From: Candidatus Eiseniibacteriota bacterium
GTDB taxonomy: Bacteria > Eisenbacteria > RBG-16-71-46
Direction: 5' to 3'
Length of the DNA stretch: 64,000 nucleotides
Assembly: GCA_031364845.1 (NCBI GenBank)
Contig: JANLWX010000231.1
Coordinates: forward strand, 32,001 to 96,000
A model generated the notes under the pieces. It ran no database searches. It was not told the origin of the DNA and saw only the letters and a program-made list of their open reading frames with translations. The translations under genes and the position numbers were made by a program. Each line of letters opens with the position of its first letter. Within the stretch, counting starts at the first letter, position 1. This document shows positions 816 through 23,029 of the stretch, in pieces.

Positions 816-1694
816 CTACATACTCCGCTTCTTGCTCCCCTGCCAGCCGAGCTTCTTCTGCAGCGACCGCGCGAACGGCCGGTCGGGATTCTGATACATG
901 AGCACTGACGTGCGGTCGAGATGGATGCGCACGTCGTCGCCGACCGCGAGGTCGACGATCTCCTGGCCGTCGAACAGCAGCACGGTGCGATCGAAGGATC
1001 CGAGCACCTTCACGTCGAGTTCCGCCCCCGGTCCCAGCACCAGCGGACGATTGCCGATCGAGTGCGCACACACCGGAGTCACCACCATCGCATCGACGTC
1101 GGGTGCGAGCACCGGTCCCCCGGCCGACAGTGAGTACGCAGTCGAGCCCGCCGCGGTCGCCGCGATCAATCCGTCGGCGACCAGATGTCCGAGGTCGCTG
1201 CCGAGAGCCGCGAGTCTCAGATGGACGGCGGCATAACCGCCCGCGCCCTTGATCACCGCGTCGTTCATCGCCACTCCGCGCGCGACCGTGCGGCCGCGCC
1301 GGCGCACGAGTGCGCTCACCATTCGGCGCGGCACCACGGGCCACGTGCGGTCGAGCGCGTGTTTGAGGGCGGCGGCGATCTCTCGGTTCTCGGCGACGGT
1401 GAGAAAGCCGAGGCCGCCGAGGTTGATCGGCAGCAGTGCGGCCTTGGTCCCGGCGATCGCGCGTCCACCGACGAGCACCGTGCCGTCGCCGCCGAGCGTC
1501 ACCAGGATCTCGCACCACTCGGCGAGTTCCTTGAGCGGGAGGCCGTCTTCGCCCATTTCACCGGCGAGGCGGGCATCCGCGCGGACCTCGATCTTGCGCC
1601 GCGTGAGCATGGAGCGCAGCCGCTGGGCCGCGAGCCGGATCCCCGGCCTCGAAGTGTGACCGAGAATCCCGACGCGCCGGATGCGCGCGCTCAT
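816..1694 (-). CDS. nadK: NAD(+) kinase
   Basis: LGGDGT, INLGGLGFL, DGLIAATAAGSTAYSLSAGGP motifs; ATGA overlap with dxs stop. Confidence 0.95.
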   Translation of the reverse strand: MSARIRRVGILGHTSRPGIRLAAQRLRSMLTRRKIEVRADARLAGEMGEDGLPLKELAEWCEILVTLGGDGTVLVGGRAIAGTKAALLPINLGGLGFLTVAENREIAAALKHALDRTWPVVPRRMVSALVRRRGRTVARGVAMNDAVIKGAGGYAAVHLRLAALGSDLGHLVADGLIAATAAGSTAYSLSAGGPVLAPDVDAMVVTPVCAHSIGNRPLVLGPGAELDVKVLGSFDRTVLLFDGQEIVDLAVGDDVRIHLDRTSVLMYQNPDRPFARSLQKKLGWQGSKKRSM

Positions 1695-3577
1695 GTGTAC
1701 TGGCGTTGGGCGATCTGGACCCAGTCGAGCACGCGGCGCGCGATCCCCGACGCATCGAGCCCGGCCTGTTCGAGCAGTTCGTCGCGCTTGCCGTGGAGCA
1801 TGAACTGCTCCGGCATCGCGATGCGATGGAGCGGCGTGCCCGACAGTCCGTTGCGGTCGAGGCATTCGCTGACCGCACTGCCGAAGCCGCCCATCGGCAC
1901 GTTCTCTTCGATCGTGACGATGCGCCCGACGGATTTCGCGAGACCGATGATCGCCTTCTCATCGAGCGGGGCCACGAAGCGCGCATCCACCACGGTCGCG
2001 GAGATGCCGTCGTGGTCGAGCATCTCGGCGGCCTTGAGAGCCGGCAGCACCATGGTGCCGATCGCGAAGATCGCGACATCGCCTCCGGCGCGCAGCTGTT
2101 CCGACACGCCGATCGCGAGCTGCTTCGGCGCGCGCTTGGGAAGTTCGTCCTCGGGAATGTTGGCGCGCGGGAACCGCACCGCGACCGGACCGTCGTAGCG
2201 GATGCCGGTCCACAGCATGTCGCGCAGTTCCTCGCCATTGCGCGGCGCCATCACGACCACGCCGGGGATCATTCGCAGAAAACCGAGATCGAAGCATCCG
2301 TGCTGCGGCGCACCGTCTTCGCCGACGATGCCGGCACGGTCGACGGCGAGCAGCATGTGCAGGTCCTGGACCGCGACGTCGTGAATGATCTGATCGAACG
2401 ATCGCTGGAGGAACGTCGAGTAGATGGCGGTGATCGGTCGCATGCCGCCGGCCGCGAGTCCGGCCGAATACGTGACGGCGTGCTCCTCGGCCATGCCGAC
2501 GTCGAAGAAGCGCTCGGGGAACTGCTTCGAGAACGGCTTGAGCCCGGTGTTGTCGGTCATCGCCGCGGTCACCGCGACGACCTCGGGAATCTTCTTCGCG
2601 ATCTCGAGTGCGGTTTCGCCGAACACGTGCGTGTAGGTCTTGCGCGCGCTCTTCGAAGTCGTGCCCGTTTCGGGGTCGAACACGCCGATGCCGTGGAAGG
2701 TGGTCGCATCGCCTTCGGCCGGCTTGTAGCCCTTGCCCTTGCGGGTCACGACGTGCAGCAGTGTCGGTCCTTCGAAACGCTTGAGGTCGCTCAGCGTCTC
2801 CTCGAGCACGTCGAAGTCGTGGCCGTCGATCGGACCGAAGTACTTGAGCCCGAGTTCTTCGAACAGGATGCCGGGCACCACGAGATTCTGGAGCCCTTCC
2901 TTGACGCGCCGGGCACCTTCGCGCGCCCGCAGCGCCTTCGGCAGCTTGCCCAGCAAGTCGTAGACGTCGGACTCGAAGCGGCGGTAGATGCGGCTCGTCG
3001 TCAGCTTGGTGAGATAGCGGTGGATCGCGCCGATGTTGGGCGAAATGCTCATCTCGTTGTCGTTCAGGATCACGATCATCCGTTTGCCGAGCTCACCGAC
3101 GTTGTTGAGCCCTTCGAACGCCATGCCTCCGGTGAGCGCTCCGTCGCCGATCACCGCGATCACATGGTGATTCTCGCCCTTCAGATCGCGCGCGACGGCC
3201 AATCCGAGCCCGGCGGAGATCGAGGTGCTGCCGTGGCAGGTGCCGAACGGATCGTGCTCGCTCTCCTGGCGCCGCGGATAGCCGGCGATGCCGCCGAGCG
3301 TGCGCAGGGTGTCGAACTGCTCGTAGCGTCCGGTGACGAGCTTGTGCGGATACGACTGGTGCCCGACGTCCCAGATGATGCGGTCGGTCGGCGAGTCGAA
3401 GACGCGGTGAAGCGCCAGCGTCAGTTCGATCACCCCGAGATTGGGAGCCAGATGCCCGGCGCGGCGCGCCACGGTCTGGATGATCACGTGGCGCATCTCG
3501 ACCGCGAGCGCTTCGAGCTCGGGCCGCGTGAGCGCCTTGACGTCGGCGGGCGAATGAATCCGTTCGAGCAGGGTCAT
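1691..3577 (-). CDS. dxs: 1-deoxy-D-xylulose-5-phosphate synthase
   Basis: GHLAPNLG, WDVGHQSYPHK, GDGALTGG..NDN, DRAG motifs; 628 aa. Confidence 0.98.
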   Translation of the reverse strand: MTLLERIHSPADVKALTRPELEALAVEMRHVIIQTVARRAGHLAPNLGVIELTLALHRVFDSPTDRIIWDVGHQSYPHKLVTGRYEQFDTLRTLGGIAGYPRRQESEHDPFGTCHGSTSISAGLGLAVARDLKGENHHVIAVIGDGALTGGMAFEGLNNVGELGKRMIVILNDNEMSISPNIGAIHRYLTKLTTSRIYRRFESDVYDLLGKLPKALRAREGARRVKEGLQNLVVPGILFEELGLKYFGPIDGHDFDVLEETLSDLKRFEGPTLLHVVTRKGKGYKPAEGDATTFHGIGVFDPETGTTSKSARKTYTHVFGETALEIAKKIPEVVAVTAAMTDNTGLKPFSKQFPERFFDVGMAEEHAVTYSAGLAAGGMRPITAIYSTFLQRSFDQIIHDVAVQDLHMLLAVDRAGIVGEDGAPQHGCFDLGFLRMIPGVVVMAPRNGEELRDMLWTGIRYDGPVAVRFPRANIPEDELPKRAPKQLAIGVSEQLRAGGDVAIFAIGTMVLPALKAAEMLDHDGISATVVDARFVAPLDEKAIIGLAKSVGRIVTIEENVPMGGFGSAVSECLDRNGLSGTPLHRIAMPEQFMLHGKRDELLEQAGLDASGIARRVLDWVQIAQRQYT

Positions 3578-4035
3578 TAGAAGATCCAGTGCCAGAATAC
3601 GGCGGTCAGGACGCCCAGCACCGCCCCGACGAATACTTCGAGGGGGGTGTGCCCCAGTAGCTCCATGAGTTTCTGCGCGCCGACTTCGGGATGCTTGAAA
3701 TGTTCGTCGATCAGGCGGTTCAGAATCTTCGCCTGCCGGCCTGCGGCACGTCGTAAGCCCGCAGCATCATACATAACGATCAGGCTGAAATACAGAGTGG
3801 CCGCGAACACCGGCGAGCGGAAACCTTCCTGGATTCCGAGCGAAGTCGACAGTGCGGCGACCGAAGCGGCATGCGAACTCGGCATGCCGCCGGTTTCGAC
3901 GAAACGCCGCAGATTCCACCGGCGTGTCAGGAAATAGACCAGGAATCCCTTGAAGCCCTGAACGGCGAACCCGACCCCCAGCGCGAGCCAGAAGGCGATA
4001 TTCGGAAGAATGTGGAATTCAGAGTTCGTGGCCAT
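3577..4035 (-). CDS. Divergent PAP2 family protein (DUF212)
   Basis: TGGMPSSHAA, VMYDAAGLRRAAGRQA, LGHTP motifs. Confidence 0.92.
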   Translation of the reverse strand: MATNSEFHILPNIAFWLALGVGFAVQGFKGFLVYFLTRRWNLRRFVETGGMPSSHAASVAALSTSLGIQEGFRSPVFAATLYFSLIVMYDAAGLRRAAGRQAKILNRLIDEHFKHPEVGAQKLMELLGHTPLEVFVGAVLGVLTAVFWHWIF

Positions 4036-4089: not shown

Positions 4090-5055
4090 TCATCGCTCCC
4101 GCTCGGCGACGGTCAGCATCAAGCCGGCGAGCTTATGGGCACTGGGGCCGAATCCGGTGACGCGACCCACGGCGGCCTGAAACAGCCGCGCGGCATCGAA
4201 GCGCGCGCGCTCCTCGCCCACCGCCCGCGGGTAAGTCGCCTTGCCCCGGGCATCGTCGGTCCCGGTGCGCTTGCCGAGCCGCGCGAGCGTGGAGACCCGG
4301 TTCAGGAGATCGTCATGGATCTGAAACGCGAGACCCAGCTCGTGGCCGCACACTTCCAGCGTTCGCAAGGCCGCGGCGTCGGCGTCGGCCGCGATTCCGC
4401 CCAGCACCAGCGACGCGGCTACCAGCGCGCCGGTCTTGCGCCGGTGGATGTCGCGGACCTGAGCGCCCGTCACGCGGCGGCGCTCGGCCTCGATGTCGAG
4501 CACCTGCCCGCCCACGAGCTCCCGGCTGCCGGCCGCGCGCGCGAGCACCTGCACCGCCTCGACCACGCGTACTGCCGGCACACCCTGGTCGGCGAGCCGC
4601 GCGACGTGTTCGAACGCGAGTGCCAGCAGCGCATCGCCGGCAAGCACGCCGAGCGCTTCTCCGTACTTCTTGTGCGTGGTGAGCCGGCCGCGGCGATAGT
4701 CGTCGTCGTCCATCGCGGGCAGATCGTCGTGGACCAGCGAGAACGCGTGCACGCACTCAACCGCGACGGCGGCAGGCAGCGCCCGCTGCCAGCGCCCGCC
4801 CGCGGCCTCGCACGCCGCGAGCACCAGCAGCGGACGCATGCGTTTGCCGGGCGACAGCGCGCTGTAACGCACCGCCGCATGGAGCCGTGGCGGCGAGAGC
4901 GTCGCCGCCGGCAGCGCGGCGGCGAAATACCGCTCGAACTCTGCGCGCATGCGGTCGATCCCGGCCGGCAACGGTGCGTTCGCGGCGCGCGACACGGCCG
5001 AAGCTCCGGAGGGAACGCGACGGCGCACGCGCCGGATGGGAGTCGCGACGCTCAA
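4090..5055 (-). CDS. ispA: Polyprenyl (farnesyl/geranylgeranyl) diphosphate synthase
   Basis: GKRMRP, HDDLPAMDDDDYRRG (FARM), FQIHDD (SARM), GKATYP; start may be at 4950. Confidence 0.93.
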   Translation of the reverse strand: MSVATPIRRVRRRVPSGASAVSRAANAPLPAGIDRMRAEFERYFAAALPAATLSPPRLHAAVRYSALSPGKRMRPLLVLAACEAAGGRWQRALPAAVAVECVHAFSLVHDDLPAMDDDDYRRGRLTTHKKYGEALGVLAGDALLALAFEHVARLADQGVPAVRVVEAVQVLARAAGSRELVGGQVLDIEAERRRVTGAQVRDIHRRKTGALVAASLVLGGIAADADAAALRTLEVCGHELGLAFQIHDDLLNRVSTLARLGKRTGTDDARGKATYPRAVGEERARFDAARLFQAAVGRVTGFGPSAHKLAGLMLTVAERER

Positions 5056-5363
5056 AACGGCAGCTCGCCCTCGGGCGGCTCGTTCGCCTGCGAGTCGAAT
5101 TCCATCGGCTGCGTGACCGGAGCCGAATCTTCGTCGCCCGATTCGATCAGCCGCTCGATGCGCTTCTCGGCTTCGTCGAGCTGATGCGTGAGGCGCTTCG
5201 ACAGCTTCATGCCTTCTTCATAGCGCTCGATCGACTCGTCCAGCGTCAGCTCTCCCCGCTCGAGTTCATCGACGATCGTGCGCAGTCGCTCGAGCGCGGC
5301 CTCGAAGCTGAGATTGGGGCCGCCGGTCGTCGCGTCCGGTACTGCGGGCTTCCTAGCGGGCAT
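5052..5363 (-). CDS. xseB: Exodeoxyribonuclease VII small subunit
   Basis: SFEAALERLRTIVDELERGELTLDESIERYEEG; follows xseA. Confidence 0.95.
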   Translation of the reverse strand: MPARKPAVPDATTGGPNLSFEAALERLRTIVDELERGELTLDESIERYEEGMKLSKRLTHQLDEAEKRIERLIESGDEDSAPVTQPMEFDSQANEPPEGELPF

Positions 5364-6723
5364 CAGGTCCTCCGGATCGCACCGTCTCGATGCGGGCGTC
5401 GGCTTCTCCGCGCGCGAACTCGATCGTCACGCGCTCACCCACGGTCAGCGTCTCGACGGTGCGCAGCACACTACCGTCGGCGCCCCGCGCCAGGCAATAG
5501 CCGCGCTCGAGCACGAGGCGCGGGGACAGCGCGCGCAGCTGGTCCACGCACGACGTCACCTGGCGACGGCGGTCGTGCAGTGCCCGGACCAGCGCCGGTG
5601 CCAGGGCGGCTTCGAGCTCGCGGGGTTCGTCGCTGAGCGCGGCCAGCGTGCGCGGCCACTCGCGCAGCGCGTAGCTCGCGGCGAGATGCTCGATCGACTG
5701 GCGGACGCTCCCCAGGCGGGAGCGCAGTGCGAAGCGCATGCGCAGCGTCGACTCGCCGACCGTCGTATGCCAGCCCTCGAACAGCTGCTGCAGGCGCTGG
5801 AAGCCGTATTTCTGCGTGAGGTGCATGAGCGCCTGGCGCCGCGATTCGAGCCGGCGTTCGAGCGCGCGACGGCTGCGCCACGTGAGGTGCCCGAGATCCT
5901 CGAGCAGTTTTACCCGCTCGCACACCACGAGCTCCGCGGCGTTGGACGGTGTGGCGGCCCGCACGTCGGCCGCGGCGTCGGCGAGCGTCCAGTCCACTTC
6001 GTGTCCGACCGCCGAGACGATCGGGATCGCGGAGCCCGCGATCGCACGCACCACGACTTCCTCGTTGAATGCCCACAGATCCTCGATCGAGCCGCCGCCG
6101 CGTCCGACAATCAGGACATCGACCGCCCCGTGGCGATTGAAACGCCGGATCGCATCGGCAATCTCGAGTGCGGCACCCGGTCCCTGCACGCGCACCGGCG
6201 CGAACACGACCGCGATGCCGGGCATGCGCCCGCGCAGCACCTTCACGATGTCGCGGATCGCGGCCCCGACCGGCGAAGTCACCACTCCGATCCGCCGCGG
6301 GTAGCGCGGCAGTGGACGCTTGCGCGCGGGATCGAACAGGCCTTCGGCGGTGAGGCGCTGCTTCAGCTGTTCGAGCTGCAGCAGCAATGCTCCGAGGCCG
6401 GCCGGGCGCATCTGCTTGACGGAGAACTGGTAGTTGCCGCGCGGCTCGTAGACCGTGATGTCGCCGAACGCTTCGATCTCGAGGCCTTCCTTCGGCTCGA
6501 ATCCGAGTCCGCTCGCGGTGCGCGACCACATCACGCAGTCGAGTGCCGCGTCCTTGCCGTCCTTGAGCTTGAAGTAGAGATGCCCGCTGTCGGCGCGCTT
6601 GAAACCCGACAGCTCGCCCTTGACCCACACGCCGGTGAATTGCTCGGCGAGCGCCTCCTTGATGGCGCGCGTCAGCTCGAGGACCGAAAGGACCCGGTCG
6701 TTCCCGGCCGGTGCGAGGCTCAT
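5353..6723 (-). CDS. xseA: Exodeoxyribonuclease VII large subunit
   Basis: VWVKGELSG, SGHLYFKLKD, GRGGGSIEDLWAFNEE, SAVGHEVD, ATPSNAAE; ATG at 6723 overlaps the upstream stop. Confidence 0.96.
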   Translation of the reverse strand: MSLAPAGNDRVLSVLELTRAIKEALAEQFTGVWVKGELSGFKRADSGHLYFKLKDGKDAALDCVMWSRTASGLGFEPKEGLEIEAFGDITVYEPRGNYQFSVKQMRPAGLGALLLQLEQLKQRLTAEGLFDPARKRPLPRYPRRIGVVTSPVGAAIRDIVKVLRGRMPGIAVVFAPVRVQGPGAALEIADAIRRFNRHGAVDVLIVGRGGGSIEDLWAFNEEVVVRAIAGSAIPIVSAVGHEVDWTLADAAADVRAATPSNAAELVVCERVKLLEDLGHLTWRSRRALERRLESRRQALMHLTQKYGFQRLQQLFEGWHTTVGESTLRMRFALRSRLGSVRQSIEHLAASYALREWPRTLAALSDEPRELEAALAPALVRALHDRRRQVTSCVDQLRALSPRLVLERGYCLARGADGSVLRTVETLTVGERVTIEFARGEADARIETVRSGGPDAR

Positions 6724-8417
6724 CGCGCGGCTTCTTCTCCGATGGTCTGGCGCGCGGCGGCGAGCACGAGGTTCGACACCACCATCGCCACCGTCATCGG
6801 ACCCACACCACCCGGAACCGGCGTCAGCGCACCCGCAACCTCGATCACCGACTCCGCGTGCACATCGCCGCAGAGTCGTGAGCCGCTGCGCTTTTCGGGA
6901 GCGGCGACGCGATGCACACCGACGTCGACGACCGTCGCACCCGGCTTCACCCACTCGGCGGTGACCGCTTCGGGCCGGCCCATCGCGACCACCAGCAGAT
7001 CCGCCTCGCGCGCGAGACGCTGGAGCGCGGGCCCGCTCGCGCTGTGACCGATCGTCACCGTCGCATCGACGCCTTTGGTCGAGAGCAGCGTCGCGACCGG
7101 GCGCCCGACGATCGAGCTGCGCCCCAACACGACCGCGTGGGTGCCCGCGAGCGGCACCTGATGAAAGCGCAGCAGCTCGAGAATGCCGCGCGGTGTGCAC
7201 GGCACGAGTGACGGAAGTCCGAGGCTCAGGCGTCCGGCGTTCACCGGATGGAAGCCATCGACATCCTTGCCCGGGGGGATTGCATCCAGCACTTCGTCCG
7301 CGCGCGCGGGGGCGGCCAGCGGAAGCTGGACGAGGATGCCGTGAACGTCCGGGTCGTCGCCGAGCTGGCGCACTTTCGCGACCACGGTACGCGTGTCGGT
7401 GCCGGCGGGCAGCGAGATGCGGCGGACCTCGATGCCCGCTTCCTTGCATGCGTCGTCCTTCTTGCGCATGTAGATCTGGGAGGCCGGATCGTCCCCGACC
7501 GAGACCAGCGCCAGGCACGGTTCGACGCCCCCCGCGCGCAGGCGCGACACTTCGATCTGCGCCGCGTAGCGCACGCTCGCGGCCGGATCGTCGCCGCGCA
7601 GCAGCCGCGCCTGCCCGGCGGGCGTCGCGTCGGGCGTGTAGCGCATCTGGATGCGCTCGATCGAGTGCGCCTTGCCGGTCGCGGGATCGACGCGGACCAC
7701 GGCGCCGTTCAGGCGCAGGTCGCCATCCGACGGCGACAGCCGCTCGTTCATGAGCGTCGTGAAACGTCGCAGTGCCGCGACGCGGTCCATGCCGATCACC
7801 GAATCGAAGCCGCCCGTCATGCCGGCGTCGGTCAGGTACGCGGTGCCTTTGGGCAGCACGCGCTCGTCCGCTGTCTGCACGTGCGTATGCGTGCCGAACA
7901 GCGCGCTCACGCGGCCGTCGAGGTTCCAGCCCATGGCGACCTTCTCGGCGGTGGTCTCGGCGTGGAAATCGAGCACGATGATCTTCGCCTGATCGCGCAG
8001 CGCTTCGAGCGTGCGCTCGATCGAGGCGAACGGCGAATCGATCTCCTTCATGAACACGCGGCCGAGCATGCTGATCACGGCGACCGGCGTGCCGTCCTGC
8101 GCGCGGAACACGCCAAAGCCCTGCCCCGGCGTCGTGGCCGGCATGTTGGCGGGCCGCACCAGTCGCGGTTCCTCGGCGAGATAACCGTGGCTCTCCTTCT
8201 TGTCCCACAGATGATTGCCGCCGGTGAGCACATCGCATCCGGCCGCGAACAGTTCCGCCGCGCCGTCACGCGTGACACCGAACCCGCCCGCCGAGTTCTC
8301 GGCGTTGCAGATCACGAGACCGATTTCGTGGCGCCGGCGCAGCTCGGGCAGCAGCGCTTTCACCACCTTGCGGCCGGGTGAACCCACGACATCGGCGATG
8401 AACAGGATGTTGAGCAA
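6720..8417 (-). CDS. ymdB-folD: Fusion protein: YmdB-family metallophosphoesterase (N-terminal) + FolD methylene-THF dehydrogenase/cyclohydrolase (C-terminal)
   Basis: TTG start after GAGGAG. YmdB motifs DVVG, NAEN, GNH, DFHAETTAEK, GTHTHV, TDAGMTG run without a stop into FolD motifs YxxxK, GILVQLP, KDVDGFHPVN, PCTP, GRSSIVG, TPVPGGVGPMT. Confidence 0.9.
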   Translation of the reverse strand: MLNILFIADVVGSPGRKVVKALLPELRRRHEIGLVICNAENSAGGFGVTRDGAAELFAAGCDVLTGGNHLWDKKESHGYLAEEPRLVRPANMPATTPGQGFGVFRAQDGTPVAVISMLGRVFMKEIDSPFASIERTLEALRDQAKIIVLDFHAETTAEKVAMGWNLDGRVSALFGTHTHVQTADERVLPKGTAYLTDAGMTGGFDSVIGMDRVAALRRFTTLMNERLSPSDGDLRLNGAVVRVDPATGKAHSIERIQMRYTPDATPAGQARLLRGDDPAASVRYAAQIEVSRLRAGGVEPCLALVSVGDDPASQIYMRKKDDACKEAGIEVRRISLPAGTDTRTVVAKVRQLGDDPDVHGILVQLPLAAPARADEVLDAIPPGKDVDGFHPVNAGRLSLGLPSLVPCTPRGILELLRFHQVPLAGTHAVVLGRSSIVGRPVATLLSTKGVDATVTIGHSASGPALQRLAREADLLVVAMGRPEAVTAEWVKPGATVVDVGVHRVAAPEKRSGSRLCGDVHAESVIEVAGALTPVPGGVGPMTVAMVVSNLVLAAARQTIGEEAAR

Positions 8418-8437
8418 CCGGACTCCTCGTGGTTTCG

Positions 8438-10000
8438 CTACTTGGCGTAGTCGACCGCGCGCGTCTCGCGGATCACGGTGACGCGGATCTGGCCGGGATA
8501 TTCGAGTTCCTTCTCGATGCGGCGCGCGATGTCGCCCGCGAGGCCCTGCGCGCGGGCGTCGTCGACCTTGCTGTGCTCGACCATGATGCGCACTTCGCGG
8601 CCGGCCTGGATCGCATAGGACTTCTCGACGCCGGCGAACGCGTTGGCGATCTTCTCGAGCGCTTCGAGCCGCTTGATGTAGATCTCGAGGCTCTCGCGCC
8701 GCGCCCCCGGTCGCGCCCCGGACATCGCGTCGGCCGCCGACACCAGCACCGGCCACAGGCTGCCACCCGCGTAGTCGTCGTGGTGGTATCCGATCGCTTC
8801 CAGCACCGGTTGCGGTTCGCCGTAGCGCGTGGCGACTTCCATCCCGAGCGCGGGATGGCTGCCTTCGTGGTCGTGGTCGATCGCCTTGCCGATGTCGTGC
8901 ATCAACCCCGCGCGCTTCGCGGTTTTCTGATCCATGCCGATCTCCGCCGCCATCATGCCGGCGAGGTGCGCGACTTCGATCGAGTGGTTGAGGATGTTCT
9001 GCCCGTAGGAGGTGCGGTAGTGGAGCCGGCCGAGCAGGTAGACGAGTTCGGCGTGCATGCCGTGAACGCCGATCTCGAGGCACGCGGCCTCGCCGAACTC
9101 CCGGATCTTGCCTTCGACCTCGGTCTTCACCTTGGCGACCACTTCCTCGATCCGCGCCGGATGGATGCGTCCGTCGGCGACCAGCCGCTCGAGCGCGATG
9201 CGCGCGATCTCGCGGCGAACCGGATCGAAGCCCGACAGGATCACGGCCTCGGGCGTGTCGTCGATGATCACGTCGATCCCGGTCACGATCTCGAACGAGC
9301 GGATGTTGCGGCCTTCGCGCCCGATGATGCGCCCCTTCATCTCGTCGCTCGGCAGGTGGACGACCGAGACCGAAGAGTCCGAGACGTGATCGGCGGCGTA
9401 ACGCTGCATCGCGAGAACGATGATCTTGCGCGCCTCGCGTTCGCCGTTGCGCTGGGCGTTGTCGCGGATCTCGGTCGTGCGGCGCGCGGCCTCCGAGCGG
9501 GCTTCTGCCTCGATCGAGGAGATCAGCTGCAGTCGCGCGTCCTCGGCGGTGAGTCCGGCGATGCGCTCGAGCCGGCTGCGCTGCTCCTGGACCACCTGAT
9601 CGAGTTCCTGCGTGCGCGAGGTGACCGCGGTTTCGCGCTGTGAGAGATCGTGCTCGGAACGTTTGAGATCGCGGTCCTTCTTCTCGATCACCTCGACGCG
9701 CCGGCTGAAGGCGACTTCCTTCTCCTGAAACGCGCGCTCGGCCGCGAGCTGGTTGTTGCGTGCTTCGAGCATCTCGCGTTCGAGCTGCTGCTTGAGCCGC
9801 AGCGCCTCCTCGCGGCTCTCGAGCACGGCGTTGCGCTTGAGCGCCTCGGCCTCGCGCTGGGCCTCTTCGGTGAGCGAGACCGCGCGGCGTTCTGCGCCCA
9901 GCACCTGCGAGCGGCCGAGCTGGGCGCGAAGGAAGAAGCCGATCACAAACGACACGACGGCACCGAGGACGATGCCGCCGATCAGGGTCACGTCAGACAT
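8438..10000 (-). CDS. rny: Ribonuclease Y
   Basis: N-terminal TM, coiled coil, KH ([13 protein letters not shown]), HD (MHDIGK), [11 protein letters not shown]. Confidence 0.98.
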
Positions 10001-10070
10001 TCATTCTCCCTGAGCATCCGCGTCCGGCGTTTGCGGCAACGCCGGGCGGCGGACGCCCGGGCAGGGAAAA

Positions 10071-10273
10071 ATCCCCGCCAAATACCGTGTGCTTGTGGGG
10101 TTCTTGAGACCTGGCGAGCCAGGTGGGCGTCCCTACGACCGGGTCGGCACTCCCCGGATTCCGGCGCCATACCGAACGCGGAATGCCGGAGCACAACGTC
10201 GCCGGCCACCAGAACACCCAGAACGAAAGTATTGGTTCAAGAACTCCGAGGCATCACGAGCACGGCAGGGAAA
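10071..10273 (-). ncRNA. ssrS: 6S RNA (SsrS)
   Basis: Canonical zapA-ssrS-rny position; ~200 nt; 5' UCCCUGCCGUGCUCGUG pairs with 3' CACAAGCAC..GGCGGGGA and UUCUUGAACC pairs with GGUCUCAAGAA, giving a long rod with a central bubble; ends approximate. Confidence 0.85.
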
Positions 10274-10303
10274 ACGCTGCGGCCTCTGATTCCGTTCGCC
10301 GCC

Positions 10304-10615
10304 TTACTTTCCTGGCGCTCCTTCGAGCACTTCGTCCAGGACGGCGGTGAGATGCGCCGTGCGCGTGCTGAGGTCGCGCAGATCGCGATCCTCGGTTTCG
10401 CGCCGTGCGCGCTCTTTGAACAGCTCGTCGGCAATATTGAGAGACGCGAGAATCGCCACTTTGGAGAGCGAGGCCACCGGCAGCTTTTCAGTGATCTCGC
10501 GCATCTTGCGGTCCACATACGCGGCGACCTCCAGGATGTACTCCTGGTTCGCTTCGCCGCGTATCGTGTACGAGTGGCCGAAGATCTCGACCTGAACGAC
10601 GTTCTTGGCGAGCAT
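10304..10615 (-). CDS. zapA: Cell division protein ZapA
   Basis: VEIFGHSYTI..VAAYVDRKM..AILASLNIADELF; GGAGG RBS. Confidence 0.93.
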   Translation of the reverse strand: MLAKNVVQVEIFGHSYTIRGEANQEYILEVAAYVDRKMREITEKLPVASLSKVAILASLNIADELFKERARRETEDRDLRDLSTRTAHLTAVLDEVLEGAPGK

Positions 10616-10672
10616 GGCGCCTCCGTCTTTGCAGCATACTTCCCTGCGCTCTGATCCCGTTGAATTGAGGCC

Positions 10673-10794
10673 GCAGGCTGCTGAAAAACCCGATTGCTGC
10701 GTTGCTCGGTCGCTCCTCGCTTCGACGTATCCTTCGGATACGCCTCGCTCGTCGCTTCCCTCGCGCCTTGCACTCGGCTTCTTCAGCAGCCTGC
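10673..10794. mobile_element. ~122-bp MITE/REP-like element with 13-bp terminal inverted repeats
   Basis: GCAGGCTGCTGAA (10673-10685) and TTCAGCAGCCTGC (10782-10794); internal hairpin CGTATCC-TTCG-GATACG; no coding capacity. Confidence 0.75.
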
Positions 10795-11090
10795 TAAGCT
10801 TCGAGCTTCTCGAGCTTCTTGAGCATCGACTCGACGCGCGAAGCGACGTCTCGACGTTCGCTGTGCCAATCCTTCTGCTCGCGACGCAAGGTCCCGAGTT
10901 CCTGCAGCAGCGCCGCCACGTCCTGACCCTGAAGTCGCTGCTCCAATTCCGCGGACCGTTGCAAGAGCTCGTCGCGCTCCTGCGTGGCGCGCTGGGCTTC
11001 GTCGCGGAGCTTCTGTACCAGCTGGGCTGCCCTCTCGACCCGCTCGCTCAGCCGGTCGAGATCCGTCTGCATCAACGCGGTCTCGGTCAT
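10794..11090 (-). CDS. zapB: ZapB-like coiled-coil cell division protein
   Basis: 98-aa all-coiled-coil ORF between pheT and zapA (conserved arrangement); ATGA overlap with pheT. Confidence 0.7.
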   Translation of the reverse strand: MTETALMQTDLDRLSERVERAAQLVQKLRDEAQRATQERDELLQRSAELEQRLQGQDVAALLQELGTLRREQKDWHSERRDVASRVESMLKKLEKLEA

Positions 11091-16384: not shown

Positions 16385-19300
16385 CTACTGAACGACCACG
16401 AACCTCCCCGTGACGCGTTCCGTCCCCTGGCTCAATCGCGCGAAATACATTCCGGGCTTGAGCGATCGGGCGCCCGCGATCCGCACGTCGTGCGTGCCGG
16501 CCGACAGCCCTTCGAGTGCTTCGCGCACGAAGCGGCGTCCGCCGAGGTCGTAGATCTCGAACGTCGCCGCACCCGCGCGCGGCAGCGCGAGTGATACGAG
16601 CACGCCGCGCGATCCGGCATCCCACCGCACTGCGGACATCGCGAGCGCGGTGTTGCCGGGGACCGAAACCGACGTCTCGCCCACGAACACCTCTCCCGAC
16701 GCGAGCATGATGCCGAGCCGGTAGGCGTACTGCGCGCCCGGAACCACGTCGTAGTCGTCGAACGTCAGACGATGCGACCCATCCGGCACCAGCCGCGCCA
16801 CGTGCGTCCATTCGCGTGCACCCTCACGCCGGTAGACCGCGGCTTCCGGAACGTCGGCGGTCATCCACACCACGCGCACCCGTTCGGAGTTGGCCTCGGT
16901 GGTCACGACCGATGCCTGCACAGGAGTCGAGCTCACGCAGTTGGCAATGCCGCCCTGCCACGAGATGTAGTTGCGATTGATCGGCATCGTGAGCTGCGGG
17001 TCATAGTTGAGTTGGAAGGGCTGGAACAGCTGAATCTCGTTCAGCAGGAGGCACATGGGTTCCGAGCAACCGGCGCAACTGCCGCTGCCGGTGGTCTTGG
17101 AACGCAGGATATTTGCCTTGAACGCGTAGTACTCGGTTTCGGGATCGACCGGCGCCGCACTTTCGATCGGAACCGCCGCCTGGATCCGGAACCGCGCACG
17201 GCTGGGCGAACCGAAACCGACATCGTAGGCATAACCGCCTGCCGCCTGTCCGGCGAAGTAGTCGACGCACGTGAACGGCCCGGAAGTGAAGTCGAAACTG
17301 GTCGCGAGCCCGGTGGTCGAGCGGCATTGCTGGCTGCCATGCCGCCACCAGTCGGGCAAGGTGGCCGTATTGGACCGGATGTCGATCTGGGCGGACATGC
17401 CGGCGAACTCCGTGACGTTCGGCGGAGGAATGAATGATGCGATCATCGCGAATGCGGAACCAGAGTTCGCATCGCAGGCGAACGTCATGTTCTCGGTGCC
17501 CGCGGTTCCGCAGTCGCTCCACGACAGGTTGATGCCGCCGTTCGTGATCATCAGGGGCCCCACACGGAACGTGCTGTCCGAGACCGCGGTCCCGCCGGGA
17601 TTGGTGACGCTGATCGGACCGTTCGTGGCTCCGGTGGGAACGGTGGCGGTGATTCTCACATCGGAAGAAATACTGAACGGCGTCGGAAGTCCGTTGAACC
17701 GGACGGACGACGTGTACAGGAAGTTCTCCCCCGTGATGGTGATCGTGCTCCCCACCGGCGCCTGGCGAGGCGAGAAACTCGCGATGCGCGGCGCGACGAT
17801 GAACGTGCCGGCCGACGTCATCGAACCGTTCGGTGTGCTGACTTCGATGAATCCCGTGCGCGCACCGGCCGGGACGGTGGCGTGAATCACCGAGTCCGAT
17901 ACGGTCGTGAACAGAGCCGGCCGCAAGTCGAAGGTGACGAGCGAAGTTGCGGTGAAATGCAGTCCGCGGATCGTGACCACGGTGCCGGGTGCTCCCGCGC
18001 CCGGCGTGAACGACTGAACGTCCGGCAGCGGACCCGGAACTCCCTGCCACGCGATCGTCTTGTGATCGAGTGCGGTCGTGATCACCGGGTCGTACTTGAA
18101 CTCGGGCGTCTGGAACAACTGGATCTGCCGCAGCGTGAGGCTCACGGGAACGTTGCACCCCGAGCAACTGCCCGTACCCGTCGACTGCGTGCGGAGGAGA
18201 TTCACCTTGAAGGCGTGGTACTCGACGGCCGGATCCAACGCGACGCGATGGGAGTTCATGAATCCGAACACTTCGATCCTGGCCATGTTCGCGCCGCCGA
18301 ATCCGACCGTGTAGTCGAGGGTGCCCGTCACCAGTTCCTGCCAGGGGTTCACGCAGGAGCCCGGGGCCAGCGAGAAGTCGAAGTTCGACGTGAGGTCGCC
18401 GGTGCCGCGGCAGAACGAGGAACCGTGCTTCCACCACTCGGGCAGCGCGGAGCCCGACGCGATCCGGATGTCCCCGGAGAGACCGATCATCTCGGTGACG
18501 CCCACCGGCGGTTTGAACGATGCGAACGCCGTGACCGTTCCCGTGTTCACGTTGCAGGCGAAGTTCTTCAAGTCGGCGCCCGCCGCGCCGCATGCATCCC
18601 ACGACAGGTTGATGAATCCCGGCGGCAGCGGCCCGACCGTGAACGCGATGTCGGAGATGTCCTCACCCGCGGGATTGGCGACGCGCAGCGGACCGCTGGT
18701 GGTGCCCGCCGGCACCGGGGCCGTGAGCATCGAGTCGTTGACGATGGTGAACGTGGCGTCGAGGCCGTTGAATTCGACGTCGTTGACGTTGATGAAGTTC
18801 ACGCCGCGCACGGTGATGACGTGACCCACGGGTGCCTGCCGCGGCGCGAACGACGTGATGATCGGAGCGACGCTGAACAGATCGTCGCTGACGTCGCTGC
18901 CCTGAATCGTCGCGACCGTGATCCGGCCGGTGCGCGCGCCGGGCGGTACCGAAGTCGCGATGGTCGTGTCCGAGGTCACGGAGAACGACGCACTCAACGT
19001 GTGAAAGAGCACGGAATTCGTTCCGGTGAAGTGCGCGCCGCGAATCGTGACCGGCTGTCCCGGGGCACCCGCCATGGGTGAGAACGAGTCGATCACCGGC
19101 GGCGGACCCGGCTCCGCCTGCCACGCGATCGCGTTGCGAAGCTGCGGTGTCGTGATCACGGGATCGAAGCCGAGTTCCGGGGACTGCATCAGCTGTAGCT
19201 GCTCGAGCGTGAGCGAAACGGGCACGTTGCATCCGGAGCACGCACCCGCTCCGGTCGTCGCGGTACGAAGCACCTGCACCTTGAACGCGTTGTACTCGCG

Positions 19301-22300
19301 ATCGGACTGGGTCGCGGTGCGATTCGACGGATCCATCGCACACACGACCTGCAGCAGTGCCGTGTTGGGGCCGTCGTAGGCGACTGAATACGAGGTGTTG
19401 CCTACCGCCTGGCCCTGCCACGGATCGAAGCATGGTGAGCCTGCGAAGCTGAAGGTTGCCGGCAGAGCGGAGCTGGCGCGGCATTGCGCGAAGCCGTGTT
19501 TCCACCAGTCGGGAAGCGCCTGGGACGATGCGATGCGCACGCGGGCGGACATTCCGATCAGCTCCTGCACGCCGGGAGGCGGCACGAACGAGCCGACGAA
19601 CGTGAACCCGGTTCCCGTGTTCGCGTCGCACGCGAACGTCTTGAGCGCCGTACCCGCCGTACCGCACAGATCCCACGACAGGTTGAGCAAGCCCGCGGGC
19701 AGCGGTCCGACATGGAACAGACTGTCTGAGGTGTCGGAGCCGCCGATATTGGTCACGGTGATCGGTCCGTCGGTCGCTCCCGCCGGCACCGGCGCCTGCA
19801 GGGTCGAGTCGTTCTGCACGGTGAACGTGGCGGTGGTGCCGTTGAAGCTCACGGCCGTGGTCCGCGTGAAGTTGAAGCCGCGGATCGAAAGCGGATAGCC
19901 CACCGGGGCCGATTGCGGAAGGAAGTTGCGCAGTTCGGGCGCCGCGATGAACATGCTGTCGCTGGTGTCCGAACCCTGGATCGTCGCGAGGTGAATCGGT
20001 CCGGTGCGCGCACCGGCCGGCACGACCGCCTCAACCTTGGTGTCCGAGGTCACCGTGAACGACGAGGCCGCAAGCGTGTGAAACCTCACCGACGAAGCGC
20101 CGGTGAATCCGCTGCCCGAGATCGTGACGACCTGAGCAGGACCGCCGCCCGGCGGTGTGAACGCCGAAATCTGCGGAACCGGTCCCGGTGCTGCCTGCCA
20201 CAAGGCGACCACTCGAGCGGCCGGTGTGGTGAGGATCGGATCGTATCCGAGTTCGGCACTCTGGAAGAGCTGGATCTGATTGAGTGTGAGGCCTACGGGG
20301 AGGCTGCAGCCCGCGCATGCGGCGGCGCCGGTCGTGTTCGCGCGCTGGATCTGCGCTTTGAACGCGTAGTACTCCGTCGAAGGACTGGCCGCTCCCGCCG
20401 AGGCCGGCAACGAACACGAGATCTGGAGTCGCGCGCTGTTCGCGCCATAGAACCCGACGCCGTACGAGGAACTCCCGGTCGCGAGCCCCTGCAGGATGTC
20501 GGTGCACGACGTGGGTCCGCTGCGGAAGTCGAAGTTCGTCGTGAGCCCTGTGGTTCCGCGGCACTGGCCGGGGCCGTGTTTCCACCAGTCGGGCAGATCA
20601 CCGGTCGAAGCGATTCGGATCTCGGCCGCGAGGCCCGTGAGTTCGAGGACATCGGGCGGAGGAATGAACGATCCGACCAGCGTGAACGCGCTGCCCGTAT
20701 TGAGGTCGCAGGCGAACGCCTGGGTCGCGGTCCCCGCGAGTCCGCAGTCGTTCCACGACAGATTGATGGTTCCCGATACGATCGGACCGACATGGAACGG
20801 GTCGTCGGAAGTGTCGGTGCCACCGGGGTTGGTGATGGCGATCGGACCGTCGGTTGCGCCAACGGGGACGATGGCATAGATCGTCGTGTCCGAATGCGTC
20901 GTGTACGACGAAGCGAGTCCGTTGAACCGGACCGACGTCGAGCGCGTGAAGTTGGTGCCGCGGATCACGACCGTGTGCCCCACCGGGGCGGTGTGCGGCA
21001 GGAAGAAACGGATGTCGGGCTTCACCACGAACAGACTCTCGGATGCCGCGGTTCCGCGGGATGTGGTCACCGCGATCGAGCCGGTGCGGGCGGCGGCGGG
21101 GACGGTCGTCGAGATCCGTGTGTCGGAGTCGACGGTGAAGGAAGCGGACACGTCGCGGAACCGAACCGCGGTGGCTCCTGTGAAGTACTGGCCCTGGATC
21201 GTCACCGGGATGCCGGGGGCCCCGGCGAGCGGCGTGAACGAATCGACCCGCGGCAACGGCCCGGGCTCCGCCTGCCAGAACGCGCTGTTGCGATGGAAAG
21301 GAATCGAGATCACCGGGTTGTAACCCATCGCGGCCGGCTGAGTGAGCTGGATCGTGTGGAGCGTGACGCGCACCGGCGTCTCGCAGCCATCACACTTCCC
21401 GGAGGAGTAGCTCTTGTTGCGCGTGATGTTGACCTTGAACGCGTAGTACGCCGTGTTCTGATCGACCGGAGTGTTCAGGGTCGACGAACTCGAAATTCTG
21501 ATGCGGGCCGTGTTCGCGCCATAGAAGCCCACATCGTAGCTGAAGCCCCCGCCGTTGATCTGGTCGAGCCACAGGTTGTCGCAGGAATAGGGTCCGCCGA
21601 ACGAGCTGAAGTTGACGTTGAGCCCGGCCGAGCTGCGACACTGACCGGATCCATGCTTCCACCAGTCGGGCAAGGTGGTGGCATACACGCCGAGATCGGA
21701 GATCGCCCCGTTGAGCTGGCTCACGCCGGGCGGAGGCACGAACGACCCGATCAGCGTGAACGGCGTTCCCGTGTTTCGATCGCACGCGAACGTCTTGATC
21801 GCCGTTCCCGCGAGTCCGCAATCGTCCCACGACAGATCCAGCGCGCCCGCCGCGGGGCCCACGCGGAACACGGAGTCGGATGGAGTCGTGCCGCCGGGAT
21901 TCGTGATCGAGATCGGCCCGGTGGTGGCCGCGCCCGGCACGACCGCGAGGAGCAGCGAATCGCTGTCGATGGAGAAGCTCGCCGTCGTCCCGTTGAAACG
22001 CACGGCCGAGACGTTTGCGAAGTTGCGGCCGGTGACGAGGATCGAGGCACCCGCGGACGCCTGCTTCGGCAGGAAGTGGCGGATCGCAGGGGCCACCGTG
22101 AACGAGAGGCTGGTGCCGCTTCCGAACGCCGTATCGAGCGTGATGGGCCCGGTCTCTCCCCCGACGGGAACGGTCGTCGTGACCTGAGCGTTGGAGACGA
22201 TGTTGAACGCCGCGGCCACGGTCCCGAAGCGTACGGACGTGGTGCCGAGCAGGTTCGAGCCGTTGATCGTCACGACCACGCCCGGCGCTCCGGCTGCAGG

Positions 22301-23029
22301 CGAGATCGAACCGATCACCGGCGGTCCCGGTGTGACCGCCTGCCAGTACACGGTGTTGCGCGTGAGCGGTGTCGTGATGATCGGATCGTTCGCACTCGAT
22401 AGCGGTTGGAACAGTTGAATGCTCTGAAGCTTGAGGCTCACCGGCGCGCTGCACCCGGCACAACTGCCGGCACCGGTCGTGTTCGAACTCAGCACGCGCA
22501 GCTTGAACGCGTAGTATTCCTGCGCCGCGGAAACGGGCGCGGCTTCATTGGAAGGAATCGCGCACTGGACCAGGACCTTGGCGGTATTGGGGCCGTACGC
22601 CGAGATCGTGTAGAGAAGCCCCCCCACTTCGCTGCCCGGCCAGAAGTCCGTGCATGCAACCGGCGAGAACGCGAAGTCGGGTGTGAGCGCGCTCACGCCG
22701 CGGCACTGTCCGCTCCCGTGCTTCCACCAGTCCGGAAGGCTGGTCGAGGCCACCCGCACCTCGGCCGACATGCCGAGCAGGTTGTTGATGCCCGCGGGCG
22801 GAACGAAAGACGCCACGGCGTTGAACGCCGGCCCGGCGTTCGTGTTGCAGGCGAACGTCTTCAACTGCGAGCCTGCAGCGCCGCAATCGTCCCACGAGAA
22901 GTTGATTCCGGCGGCATCGGCGGAGGGAACTCGAGAACTCATGAGCAACGCGGCGCAGCAGATGAACGCGAATGTCCGGCGTAGCAACTCGGCGAACGCG
23001 ACGGGACGAGACGAGCGAGGGCGGATCAT
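16385..23029 (-). CDS. 2214-aa secreted protein: 6 Cys/Trp-rich modules alternating with paired IPT/TIG domains, C-terminal FlgD-Ig/T9SS-like domain
   Basis: Signal peptide; six 'xNLSWxDCG..FAC..LPDWWKHG..CR' modules; IPT repeats 'SFTP.AG.PG..VTI.G..FTG...V.F'; C-terminus 'FEIYDLGGR..LKPGMYFARL..RFVVVQ'. Confidence 0.88.
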   Translation of the reverse strand: MIRPRSSRPVAFAELLRRTFAFICCAALLMSSRVPSADAAGINFSWDDCGAAGSQLKTFACNTNAGPAFNAVASFVPPAGINNLLGMSAEVRVASTSLPDWWKHGSGQCRGVSALTPDFAFSPVACTDFWPGSEVGGLLYTISAYGPNTAKVLVQCAIPSNEAAPVSAAQEYYAFKLRVLSSNTTGAGSCAGCSAPVSLKLQSIQLFQPLSSANDPIITTPLTRNTVYWQAVTPGPPVIGSISPAAGAPGVVVTINGSNLLGTTSVRFGTVAAAFNIVSNAQVTTTVPVGGETGPITLDTAFGSGTSLSFTVAPAIRHFLPKQASAGASILVTGRNFANVSAVRFNGTTASFSIDSDSLLLAVVPGAATTGPISITNPGGTTPSDSVFRVGPAAGALDLSWDDCGLAGTAIKTFACDRNTGTPFTLIGSFVPPPGVSQLNGAISDLGVYATTLPDWWKHGSGQCRSSAGLNVNFSSFGGPYSCDNLWLDQINGGGFSYDVGFYGANTARIRISSSSTLNTPVDQNTAYYAFKVNITRNKSYSSGKCDGCETPVRVTLHTIQLTQPAAMGYNPVISIPFHRNSAFWQAEPGPLPRVDSFTPLAGAPGIPVTIQGQYFTGATAVRFRDVSASFTVDSDTRISTTVPAAARTGSIAVTTSRGTAASESLFVVKPDIRFFLPHTAPVGHTVVIRGTNFTRSTSVRFNGLASSYTTHSDTTIYAIVPVGATDGPIAITNPGGTDTSDDPFHVGPIVSGTINLSWNDCGLAGTATQAFACDLNTGSAFTLVGSFIPPPDVLELTGLAAEIRIASTGDLPDWWKHGPGQCRGTTGLTTNFDFRSGPTSCTDILQGLATGSSSYGVGFYGANSARLQISCSLPASAGAASPSTEYYAFKAQIQRANTTGAAACAGCSLPVGLTLNQIQLFQSAELGYDPILTTPAARVVALWQAAPGPVPQISAFTPPGGGPAQVVTISGSGFTGASSVRFHTLAASSFTVTSDTKVEAVVPAGARTGPIHLATIQGSDTSDSMFIAAPELRNFLPQSAPVGYPLSIRGFNFTRTTAVSFNGTTATFTVQNDSTLQAPVPAGATDGPITVTNIGGSDTSDSLFHVGPLPAGLLNLSWDLCGTAGTALKTFACDANTGTGFTFVGSFVPPPGVQELIGMSARVRIASSQALPDWWKHGFAQCRASSALPATFSFAGSPCFDPWQGQAVGNTSYSVAYDGPNTALLQVVCAMDPSNRTATQSDREYNAFKVQVLRTATTGAGACSGCNVPVSLTLEQLQLMQSPELGFDPVITTPQLRNAIAWQAEPGPPPVIDSFSPMAGAPGQPVTIRGAHFTGTNSVLFHTLSASFSVTSDTTIATSVPPGARTGRITVATIQGSDVSDDLFSVAPIITSFAPRQAPVGHVITVRGVNFINVNDVEFNGLDATFTIVNDSMLTAPVPAGTTSGPLRVANPAGEDISDIAFTVGPLPPGFINLSWDACGAAGADLKNFACNVNTGTVTAFASFKPPVGVTEMIGLSGDIRIASGSALPEWWKHGSSFCRGTGDLTSNFDFSLAPGSCVNPWQELVTGTLDYTVGFGGANMARIEVFGFMNSHRVALDPAVEYHAFKVNLLRTQSTGTGSCSGCNVPVSLTLRQIQLFQTPEFKYDPVITTALDHKTIAWQGVPGPLPDVQSFTPGAGAPGTVVTIRGLHFTATSLVTFDLRPALFTTVSDSVIHATVPAGARTGFIEVSTPNGSMTSAGTFIVAPRIASFSPRQAPVGSTITITGENFLYTSSVRFNGLPTPFSISSDVRITATVPTGATNGPISVTNPGGTAVSDSTFRVGPLMITNGGINLSWSDCGTAGTENMTFACDANSGSAFAMIASFIPPPNVTEFAGMSAQIDIRSNTATLPDWWRHGSQQCRSTTGLATSFDFTSGPFTCVDYFAGQAAGGYAYDVGFGSPSRARFRIQAAVPIESAAPVDPETEYYAFKANILRSKTTGSGSCAGCSEPMCLLLNEIQLFQPFQLNYDPQLTMPINRNYISWQGGIANCVSSTPVQASVVTTEANSERVRVVWMTADVPEAAVYRREGAREWTHVARLVPDGSHRLTFDDYDVVPGAQYAYRLGIMLASGEVFVGETSVSVPGNTALAMSAVRWDAGSRGVLVSLALPRAGAATFEIYDLGGRRFVREALEGLSAGTHDVRIAGARSLKPGMYFARLSQGTERVTGRFVVVQ

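Follow-up and report, generated by a model that had tools for sequence, protein, structure and literature searches.

Gene content of the locus

The locus lies on the minus strand of the window (the whole stretch of DNA analysed, 64,000 nucleotides), and its features are given below from upstream to downstream, each with the evidence on which the assignment rests.

10304..10615, minus strand: zapA (Pfam)
10068..10274, minus strand: 6S RNA (Rfam RF00013, 64.4 bits)
8438..10000, minus strand: rny (RNase Y), directly upstream of the fused gene (Pfam)
8423..8428, minus strand: GAGGAG, ribosome-binding site of the fused gene (sequence)
6720..8417, minus strand: fused ymdB-folD gene, 565 aa, with a TTG start and a TGA stop overlapping the xseA ATG (ATGA) (translation, Pfam, TIGR00282)
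7650..8417, minus strand: YmdB/TIGR00282 metallophosphoesterase half, aa 1-256 (profile match and residues)
7611..7649, minus strand: linker, aa 257-269 (QMRYTPDATPAGQ), whose sequence differs between relatives and which has a non-conserved ATG at 7646-7644 (alignment, structure model)
6720..7610, minus strand: FolD half, aa 270-565 (profile match and residues)
5353..6723, minus strand: xseA, whose start overlaps the stop of the fused gene (Pfam)
5052..5363, minus strand: xseB (Pfam)
4090..5055, minus strand: ispA-type polyprenyl synthetase (Pfam)
3577..4035, minus strand: DUF212 (divergent PAP2) (Pfam)
1691..3577, minus strand: dxs (Pfam)

The frame 8417..6720 translates into 565 aa with 0 internal stops, and its TTG start is located 5 nt past GAGGAG. 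The intact YmdB-FolD reading frame proposed in the initial annotation was recovered as a single minus-strand frame carrying both Pfam sets; the linker MRYTPDATPAGQ and the FolD motifs quoted there are present, and the 6S RNA/RNase Y context could also be verified. Downstream of the fusion, the genes overlap at four junctions, as ymdB and folD do in many unfused relatives. No sigma-70-like promoter was detected in a scan of 6500-10800, and terminator-like sites in the same region numbered 5 vs. 2.1 +/- 1.6 expected, with 0 between the YmdB and FolD halves.

The absence of ygfA, also remarked on initially, holds for the genome (97% complete), whereas the gene was found in 11 of 14 control genomes. 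A link between ygfA loss and the fusion was rejected, as the absence is common to fused and unfused relatives (0/61). The genome encodes FtcD, which is able to replace YgfA according to part of PMC3223725, and Fhs. No second ymdB or folD match was found in it, the fused gene being the only match to either.

Domains and catalytic residues

The YmdB family (PF13277) matches aa 5-256 over its whole profile (positions 1-253; E = 1e-101, 339.9 bits), and TIGR00282 passes its cut-off (279.1 vs. 254.15 bits). In the second half, THF_DHG_CYH (PF00763; aa 273-387, profile 1-115 of 115) and THF_DHG_CYH_C (PF02882; aa 390-557, profile 1-159 of 160) both score above cut-off. None of the 24 NCBIfam FolD models listed (25 of 31 families listed) is passed, the best reaching 313.9 vs. 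396 bits, probably due to the tuning of these models to other lineages.

The dimetal site and catalytic dyad of the YmdB half are all kept: D9, E40, N41, N68, H69, D72, H152, H177, and H179 align with D8, E39, N40, N67, H68, D71, H150, H175, and H177, which an excerpt of PMC10406935 gives as the metal-site and catalytic residues of Bacillus subtilis YmdB. They are invariant in 121 fused sequences (D9 in 120 plus one gap), with D72 invariant in 97. Residues Y316, K320, Q364, D387, R433, and S459 of the FolD half align with human Y52, K56, Q100, D125, R173, and S197 (1A4I), and each occurs in 121/121 fused sequences except Q364 (120/121). We take the YxxxK, Q, and D to be cyclohydrolase and folate-binding residues, and human R173 and S197 are presumably those for the NADP 2'-phosphate. 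Judged from sequence, the YmdB half is predicted to hydrolyze cyclic nucleotide monophosphates, an activity that YmdB has in vitro, and the FolD half to act as an NADP-linked methylene-THF dehydrogenase/cyclohydrolase, with no channelling predicted between them.

B. subtilis YmdB (4B2O) matches fused aa 3-258 as a whole domain (E = 4e-75). However, members of TIGR00282/PF13277 (B. subtilis 4B2O, Deinococcus 1T70, and Thermus TTHA0625 2CV9) are stand-alone proteins of ~260 aa, whereas the window protein has 565 aa with a C-terminal FolD of 296 aa. Compared with bifunctional FolD/human DC301 (8WFC, 1A4I, and E. coli 1B0A), both Pfam domains are complete in the FolD half, but its own start is absent and the usual N-terminal DGK is replaced by LxG(D/E)(E)PA in fused proteins. 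None of 30 matched PDB sequences spans both halves.

Reality of the fusion and nature of the linker

Removal of a stop codon by sequencing or assembly error, to which the 233-contig state of the source assembly might point, is extremely improbable. All 120 best homologues (67-95% identical) have both Pfam sets and, together with 67 more, constitute 187 distinct fused 90%-clusters, while 70 of 71 family genomes are fused. At the junction itself, where inspection of reads had been recommended, public contigs from three runs of two studies (X1, 6600-8067; X2, 7313-8209; X4, 7531-7697) bridge gap-free and without a stop. X1 possibly represents the source sample of the assembly. An artefact is thus ruled out by homologues, family genomes, and bridging contigs.

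An AlphaFold2 model of the fused protein (pLDDT 92) suggests two domains without a fixed arrangement; its pTM of 0.57 comes from a 97-row, 71%-identical alignment and is weak on contacts. The lowest confidence falls in linker residues 264-266, the only ones below 50. Linker length is narrow, being 18-19 residues in 96 of 121 fused sequences, with a maximum of 33.

Separate production of FolD, via an internal start or linker cleavage, appears very improbable. An in-frame ATG does occur at codon 258 in this genome, the linker is predicted by the model to be flexible, and some ATG/GTG/TTG was present in the linker of 17 of 40 fused loci. However, in-frame start codons are missing from the linker in the other 23, and only one locus of the 40 has a linker start with a Shine-Dalgarno match of >=4 nt. 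A linker Met was found in 9/121 fused proteins, at varying positions (the 67 further proteins lie outside this count). In the window, the initial observation of no stop and no obvious internal ribosome-binding site was borne out, the ATG at 7646-7644 having a match of at most 3 nt to AGGAGG. The linker ATG was therefore rejected as a general internal start, and the idea that FolD might be made from it finds no conserved counterpart across fused relatives; on the basis of these alignments, the internal Met is incidental.

Distribution and phylogeny

The fusion is fixed in the family of the window (f1), where the frame runs stop-free across the junction in 70 of 71 genomes and named members belong to Candidatus Eisenbacteria. 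Several apparent exceptions were dismissed: the single TGA of G021 is its terminal stop, an N gap splits the gene of G025 with the linker intact, G131 is fused at the junction and broken later inside FolD, and G107 and G140 (contig ends) and G141 (Ns) are interrupted. Partial matches in G005, G023, G033, and G118 all cross the junction, and no match was obtained in G116 and G036. Three genomes of the sister family f3 carry the fusion as well. The possibility, raised initially, that relatives always encode two genes was contradicted by the fused f1 relatives.

No full-length fusion was found outside the f1/f3 lineage among the matches listed. Of the best 150 matches among 1.84 billion 50%-cluster representatives, three were fused, one of them full-length and two partial, and the 67 further fused proteins, retrieved by using an outside YmdB as query, were all nearest to f1. 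Among long forms of YmdB, fusions with FolD predominate by a wide margin (117 of the best 120). Another YmdB fusion, YmdB-PHP (P0339), was also observed, and a PHP gene lies downstream of ymdB in locus L116. Long FolD proteins (P0154-P0268) showed no YmdB partner, their partners being STAS, Clp_N, CCG, and HIT.

In a tree of FolD plus XseA (24 rows), f1 and f3 form one clade (SH-aLRT 98) with the unfused family f2 outside, and an f1+f2 clade was rejected (p-AU 0.02), both tree and test omitting 7 of 13 f1 rows and the tree also lacking G021 (short XseA match). All trees were quick searches without bootstrap. FolD alone united f1 and f3 only within a branch of support 86 that includes G058, and YmdB alone gave no resolution of f1+f3. 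A single origin of the fusion is likely, as it fits the FolD+XseA tree; two origins within the order are possible.

Unfused relatives and other ymdB loci

In the 22 loci of the same class that were examined, ymdB and folD are adjacent but separate genes, with the folD start overlapping or lying <=4 nt from the ymdB stop in 14 and a folD Shine-Dalgarno match of >=4 nt in 15. Unfused operons of this class (e.g., G037, G053, and G059) share the gene order of the window, 6S-rny-ymdB-folD-xseA-xseB-ispA-dxs; the unfused form has two genes with a stop and, mostly, an overlapping or adjacent folD start that has its own ribosome-binding site, whereas the window has one frame. The order rny-ymdB-folD was also found in Methylomirabilia (L120) and Cloacimonadota (L122). 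An initial suggestion of a fusion at the junction of two operons was therefore upheld only in that neighbours fused; the junction was not created by fusion, since ymdB-folD adjacency is older in the class.

Loss of ymdB was also observed. The gene was not found in 5/5 tested folD-bearing relatives (95-99% complete), and G090 has rny-folD with ymdB cut out. No YmdB remnants were seen ahead of FolD in G038, G043, G040, G044, and G046, where FolD N-termini are short; in G038 and G043, FolD begins just behind the 6S RNA region.

Among 78 outside ymdB loci (drawn from 80 kept of >600 matching stretches), rny occurs within 3 kb in 39, in agreement with its position directly ahead of ymdB in the window and in many bacteria, xseA in 23, and folD in 2. 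Other downstream neighbours vary, with a TyrRS-type synthetase in 8 of 40 scanned. Folate genes near ymdB comprise ygfA in at least 5 loci, folD in 2 (L120 and L122), and MTHFR in 1 (L126); ygfA was identified by Pfam in L078 and L112 and by a motif in L068, L080, and L101.

Origin of the fusion and alternative explanations

The explanation we prefer, with a probability of roughly three in four, is that two independent enzymes share a flexible tether that arose once by stop loss between adjacent, translationally coupled genes. In the common ancestor of f1 and f3, the frames would have been joined either by the gain or loss of one base where the genes overlapped as ATGA, or by a substitution in the stop codon of a TGA-ATG junction, after which the own start and ribosome-binding site of FolD would have decayed. 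Because of this decay, any new stop in the linker would silence FolD, and such a ratchet could keep the fusion without benefit. Some members of f3 likely left this state by deleting the YmdB half and regaining a start. Several observations weigh against this merger of neighbours. That none of 70 f1 genomes, diverged by ~30-35%, has gone back to separate genes fits selection as well as a ratchet, as does the narrow linker length; Fhs is present, so FolD may be dispensable, which weakens the ratchet; the fusion dominates the long YmdB forms; folate genes recur near ymdB elsewhere; and the trees were quick and non-bootstrapped, with the FolD-alone and YmdB-alone trees weaker on f1+f3.

Some of these points could instead reflect functional coupling, in which YmdB would have a substrate in folate/NADP chemistry (e.g., a cyclic-phosphate damage product of pterin or NADP), or one half would regulate the other, with proximity selected. 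This is unlikely. Besides the 0 reversions in f1, it gains from three folate genes (ygfA, folD, and MTHFR) flanking ymdB in other phyla and from constraint on both halves approximately as strong as that on XseA (distance ratios 0.90 and 0.97), and part of PMC6123443 describes the physiological substrate of YmdB as undiscovered. However, recurrent independent origins were not encountered, one origin fits the tree, and the partners are not lost together, ymdB being repeatedly lost with folD kept and folD lying beside ymdB in only 2/78 outside loci. The 6S RNA-ygfA pair is itself a conserved block, which explains the ygfA neighbourhood, and the best 120 long forms of YmdB include no fusion to YgfA. 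Clade-specific residues (3/253 in YmdB and 4/285 in FolD vs. 6/416 in unfused XseA) show no fusion-specific excess, and 3 of the 4 in FolD persist in f3 FolDs without YmdB. A bolder version, which we regard as a long shot, assigns YmdB to damage control in folate/NADP one-carbon chemistry: working beside FolD, it would open a cyclic-phosphate by-product, which would account for both the ygfA/folD/MTHFR flanks and the unsplit fusion. As a further point against coupling, several fused proteins are labelled 2'-phosphodiesterase by JGI, a regiochemistry that would convert 2',3'-cyclic NADP into an unusable 3' isomer.

Selection for dosage or assembly, through 1:1 synthesis or, provided that each half retains its homo-oligomeric state, through linking of these oligomers into a larger assembly, is similarly improbable. 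FolD is a homodimer, the YmdB entries 4B2O and 1T70 contain 4 and 8 chains, and the folds are intact, in line with the narrow linker and absence of reversion; however, unfused relatives already couple translation via overlaps, and the linker is unconstrained in sequence and reaches 33 residues. Overall, of the two readings offered in the initial annotation, the plain merger of neighbours is supported, whereas a single origin, ymdB loss with folD kept, and folD at 2/78 loci leave little support for a Rosetta-stone link to folate metabolism.

Implications

As the initial annotation had supposed, no description of a YmdB-FolD fusion was found in a literature search, and the main text of PMC9426524 does not mention ymdB. 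Annotations of the top 120 sequences include 8 labelled only "hypothetical protein", and the other named ones refer only to the YmdB half, so FolD can look missing. YmdB controls biofilm and motility switching in B. subtilis; if coupling to FolD were true, the substrate class of YmdB would be named, and the single protein makes this idea cheap to test. If the merger of neighbours holds, the fusion serves as a marker of an uncultured clade, can mislead annotation, and illustrates how a fusion of overlapping genes may be gained, locked in, and partly lost; it would also caution against taking one fusion as a functional link.

Structure of the ymdB:folD gene and its locus

Translation of the window together with Pfam confirmed that YmdB and FolD share one uninterrupted frame, ymdB:folD, as described in the initial annotation. 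Its start codon is TTG, 5 nt behind GAGGAG. Pfam, with Rfam for the RNA, gave the gene order zapA, 6S RNA, rny, ymdB:folD, xseA, xseB, ispA, DUF212 and dxs, and pheS and pheT were recognized by eye from translations further upstream of zapA. The following features were delineated:

8417..6720, minus strand: ymdB:folD, 565 residues without a stop; YmdB domain at aa 5-256, FolD domains at aa 273-387 and 390-557 (Pfam)
10068-10274: 6S RNA, between zapA and rny
10794-11090, minus strand: short frame resembling a coiled coil, flanked by pheT and zapA, its position suggesting a ZapB-like protein (from translation)
16385-23029, minus strand: 2214-aa frame with signal-like N-terminus and C-terminal sorting-like tail, in which repeated IPT/TIG-like modules alternate with a cysteine-bearing 'LSWDDCG' module (from translation)

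The YmdB half exceeds the TIGR00282 cut-off, and the fusion protein falls below the cut-offs of the 24 NCBIfam FolD models listed. Counterparts of human Y52, K56, Q100, D125, R173 and S197, which serve catalysis and NADP binding, are retained in the FolD half. The nine YmdB residues listed for the metal/catalytic site in PMC10406935 map to D9, E40, N41, N68, H69, D72, H152, H177 and H179 and are invariant among fused sequences. Set against XseA, the two halves diverge at ratios of 0.90 and 0.97 among 435 fused pairs, and the corresponding values for 231 unfused pairs are 1.01 and 1.12 (pairs non-independent in both sets), indicating that neither half is decaying. Judged from these sequences, both halves look active.

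Occurrence of the fusion

Each of the best 120 homologues, which are 559-580 aa long and 67-95% identical, contains both domain sets; one bears the name Candidatus Eisenbacteria, as does locus L052. The family of the window genome (f1) accounts for 71 of the 172 phylum genomes compared, and the junction is crossed without a stop in 70 of them (61 full length, 9 partial), the remaining one yielding no match; relatives therefore do not always encode two genes. Among matches listed for the 101 other phylum genomes, only G042 and G045 of the sister family f3 are fused, and a separate search added G048 (f3). The 102 matches outside this list all scored below 266 bits, against more than 560 for listed full-length fused matches. 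Contigs from three runs in two studies bridged the junction gap-free and without a stop. By virtue of the homologues, the f1 genomes and these contigs, a sequencing or assembly artefact was ruled out, its probability being negligible, and the fusion is real.

When all 50%-cluster representatives were searched, the best 150 of 29,004 matches contained one full-length and two partial fused proteins. A YmdB query from outside the lineage, limited to long proteins, gave 313 matches; among the best 120, YmdB-FolD made up 117, and all 67 new fused proteins were nearest to f1. The remaining three comprised an N-terminally extended YmdB, a DUF1990-YmdB and a YmdB-PHP protein. The YmdB-PHP protein (P0339, 547 aa, 6 members) and an unfused PHP gene 3' of ymdB in a Dehalococcoidia record (L116:3771-4604) show that YmdB is able to fuse with other downstream neighbours. 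FolD was seen fused to HIT, STAS, Clp_N and CCG in single representatives (P0249, P0164, P0172 and P0188). No published description of a YmdB-FolD fusion was found in the main texts searched, which take in a minority of subscription journals; the architecture is already visible in public databases via precomputed Pfam assignments.

Origin of the fusion

At 22 loci belonging to other families within the class, folD adjoins ymdB as a separate gene, and in 14 of these the folD start overlaps the ymdB stop or lies within 4 nt of it; the adjacency predates the fusion. Junctions in these 14 take the forms ATGA, TGATG, TAGATG and TGAATG, at which one indel or one substitution would join the frames. 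Such overlaps are common and permit translational coupling, according to PMC6728339.

In a quick-search tree built from 24 rows of FolD+XseA, f1 and f3 grouped together (SH-aLRT 98) and the unfused f2 fell outside them; an f1+f2 clade was rejected at p 0.02. Within f3, the fused branch has no rny at the locus, and in the other branch 6S RNA is followed directly by folD. None of the five FolD-keeping relatives tested (95-99% complete, three families) yielded a YmdB match. A single fusion, followed by a single loss of its YmdB portion, is the simplest account; two separate fusions may have occurred instead, as single-gene trees are weaker than the combined one.

Among relatives, rny is missing from the locus at L035, L036, L037, L042 and L043 (f3, f9, f10) and at L048-L051, and such loci have 6S RNA directly before ymdB, or before folD where ymdB is gone. 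The G090 locus reads rny-folD.

Genomic neighbours of ymdB

From at least 600 matches, 80 GTDB loci were kept; two were fused (one named Eisenbacteria, the other at 68%), and the 78 others were counted. Within 3 kb of ymdB, rny occurred in 39, xseA in 23 and folD in 2. The steady partners of ymdB are rny and xseA, and these counts imply that folD arrives beside ymdB with the folD-xseA block, which is conserved in Firmicutes. At least five loci carried ygfA, two of them recognized by Pfam in a scan of 38 upstream frames and three by a sequence motif, and one carried MTHFR. This third folate gene (L126:2095-2994, Acidobacteriota) ends a few bases before ymdB (3001) on the same strand. Other downstream frames (40 of 59 scanned) included TyrRS-type synthetase (8), GH39 (4) and SpoVS (2), the rest being single or unassigned; an HSP20 gene lies directly upstream of ymdB-xseA in L054-L057 (Vicinamibacteria/Acidobacteriota).

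Beyond the locus, where its absence had been noted, ygfA was found in none of the 61 genomes of the class searched, fused and unfused alike. Outside the window, the genome encodes FtcD (G000:C186:15649-16539) and Fhs (G000:C53:66642-68264). According to PMC3223725, FtcD rescues an E. coli mutant in ygfA and typically occurs in bacteria that lack this gene.

Interpretation of the fusion

Separate synthesis of FolD from the in-frame ATG at 7646-7644, raised in the initial annotation, is very improbable: a linker Met is present in 9 of 121 fused proteins, in-frame ATG/GTG/TTG is absent from the linker DNA in 23 of 40 fused loci, and a linker start with a Shine-Dalgarno match of at least 4 nt occurs in 1 of 40, versus 15 of 22 unfused folD starts. 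This ATG is incidental. AlphaFold2 (97-row alignment; pLDDT 92, below 50 at residues 264-266 alone; pTM 0.57) predicted two well-folded modules, their arrangement without confidence, and no matched PDB sequence covered both halves.

Chemical coupling of YmdB and FolD is unlikely. Its chief support is the folate genes beside ymdB (ygfA, folD, MTHFR), a signal real but thin. Counting residues that are invariant across fused f1 and f3 and rare in unfused relatives gave 3/253 in YmdB, 4/285 in FolD and 6/416 in XseA, so that no excess marking an interface emerged in this comparison of modest power; three of the four FolD changes are also present in f3 FolDs without YmdB. Between the alternatives first offered, the 22 unfused adjacent loci favour plain fusion of neighbours, and the rarity of folD beside ymdB and the lack of an excess of such residues disfavour a functional link. 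Selection for dosage or assembly seems marginally less probable still.

The preferred reading (probability roughly three in four) is a pair of independently working enzymes joined by a tether, which became one chain through a single fusion and stayed so since FolD no longer had its own start. Against it stand the lack of any return to two genes in 70 genomes, the narrow range of linker lengths, 96 of 121 proteins having 18-19 residues there, the scattered folate neighbours, and Fhs, which would loosen the lock-in. The stop between coupled neighbours would have been lost once, and the fusion then retained because FolD had no start of its own. As no second ymdB or folD match was found in the window genome, a 4.6-Mb assembly in 233 contigs with 97% completeness, the functions of both YmdB and FolD depend on ymdB:folD.
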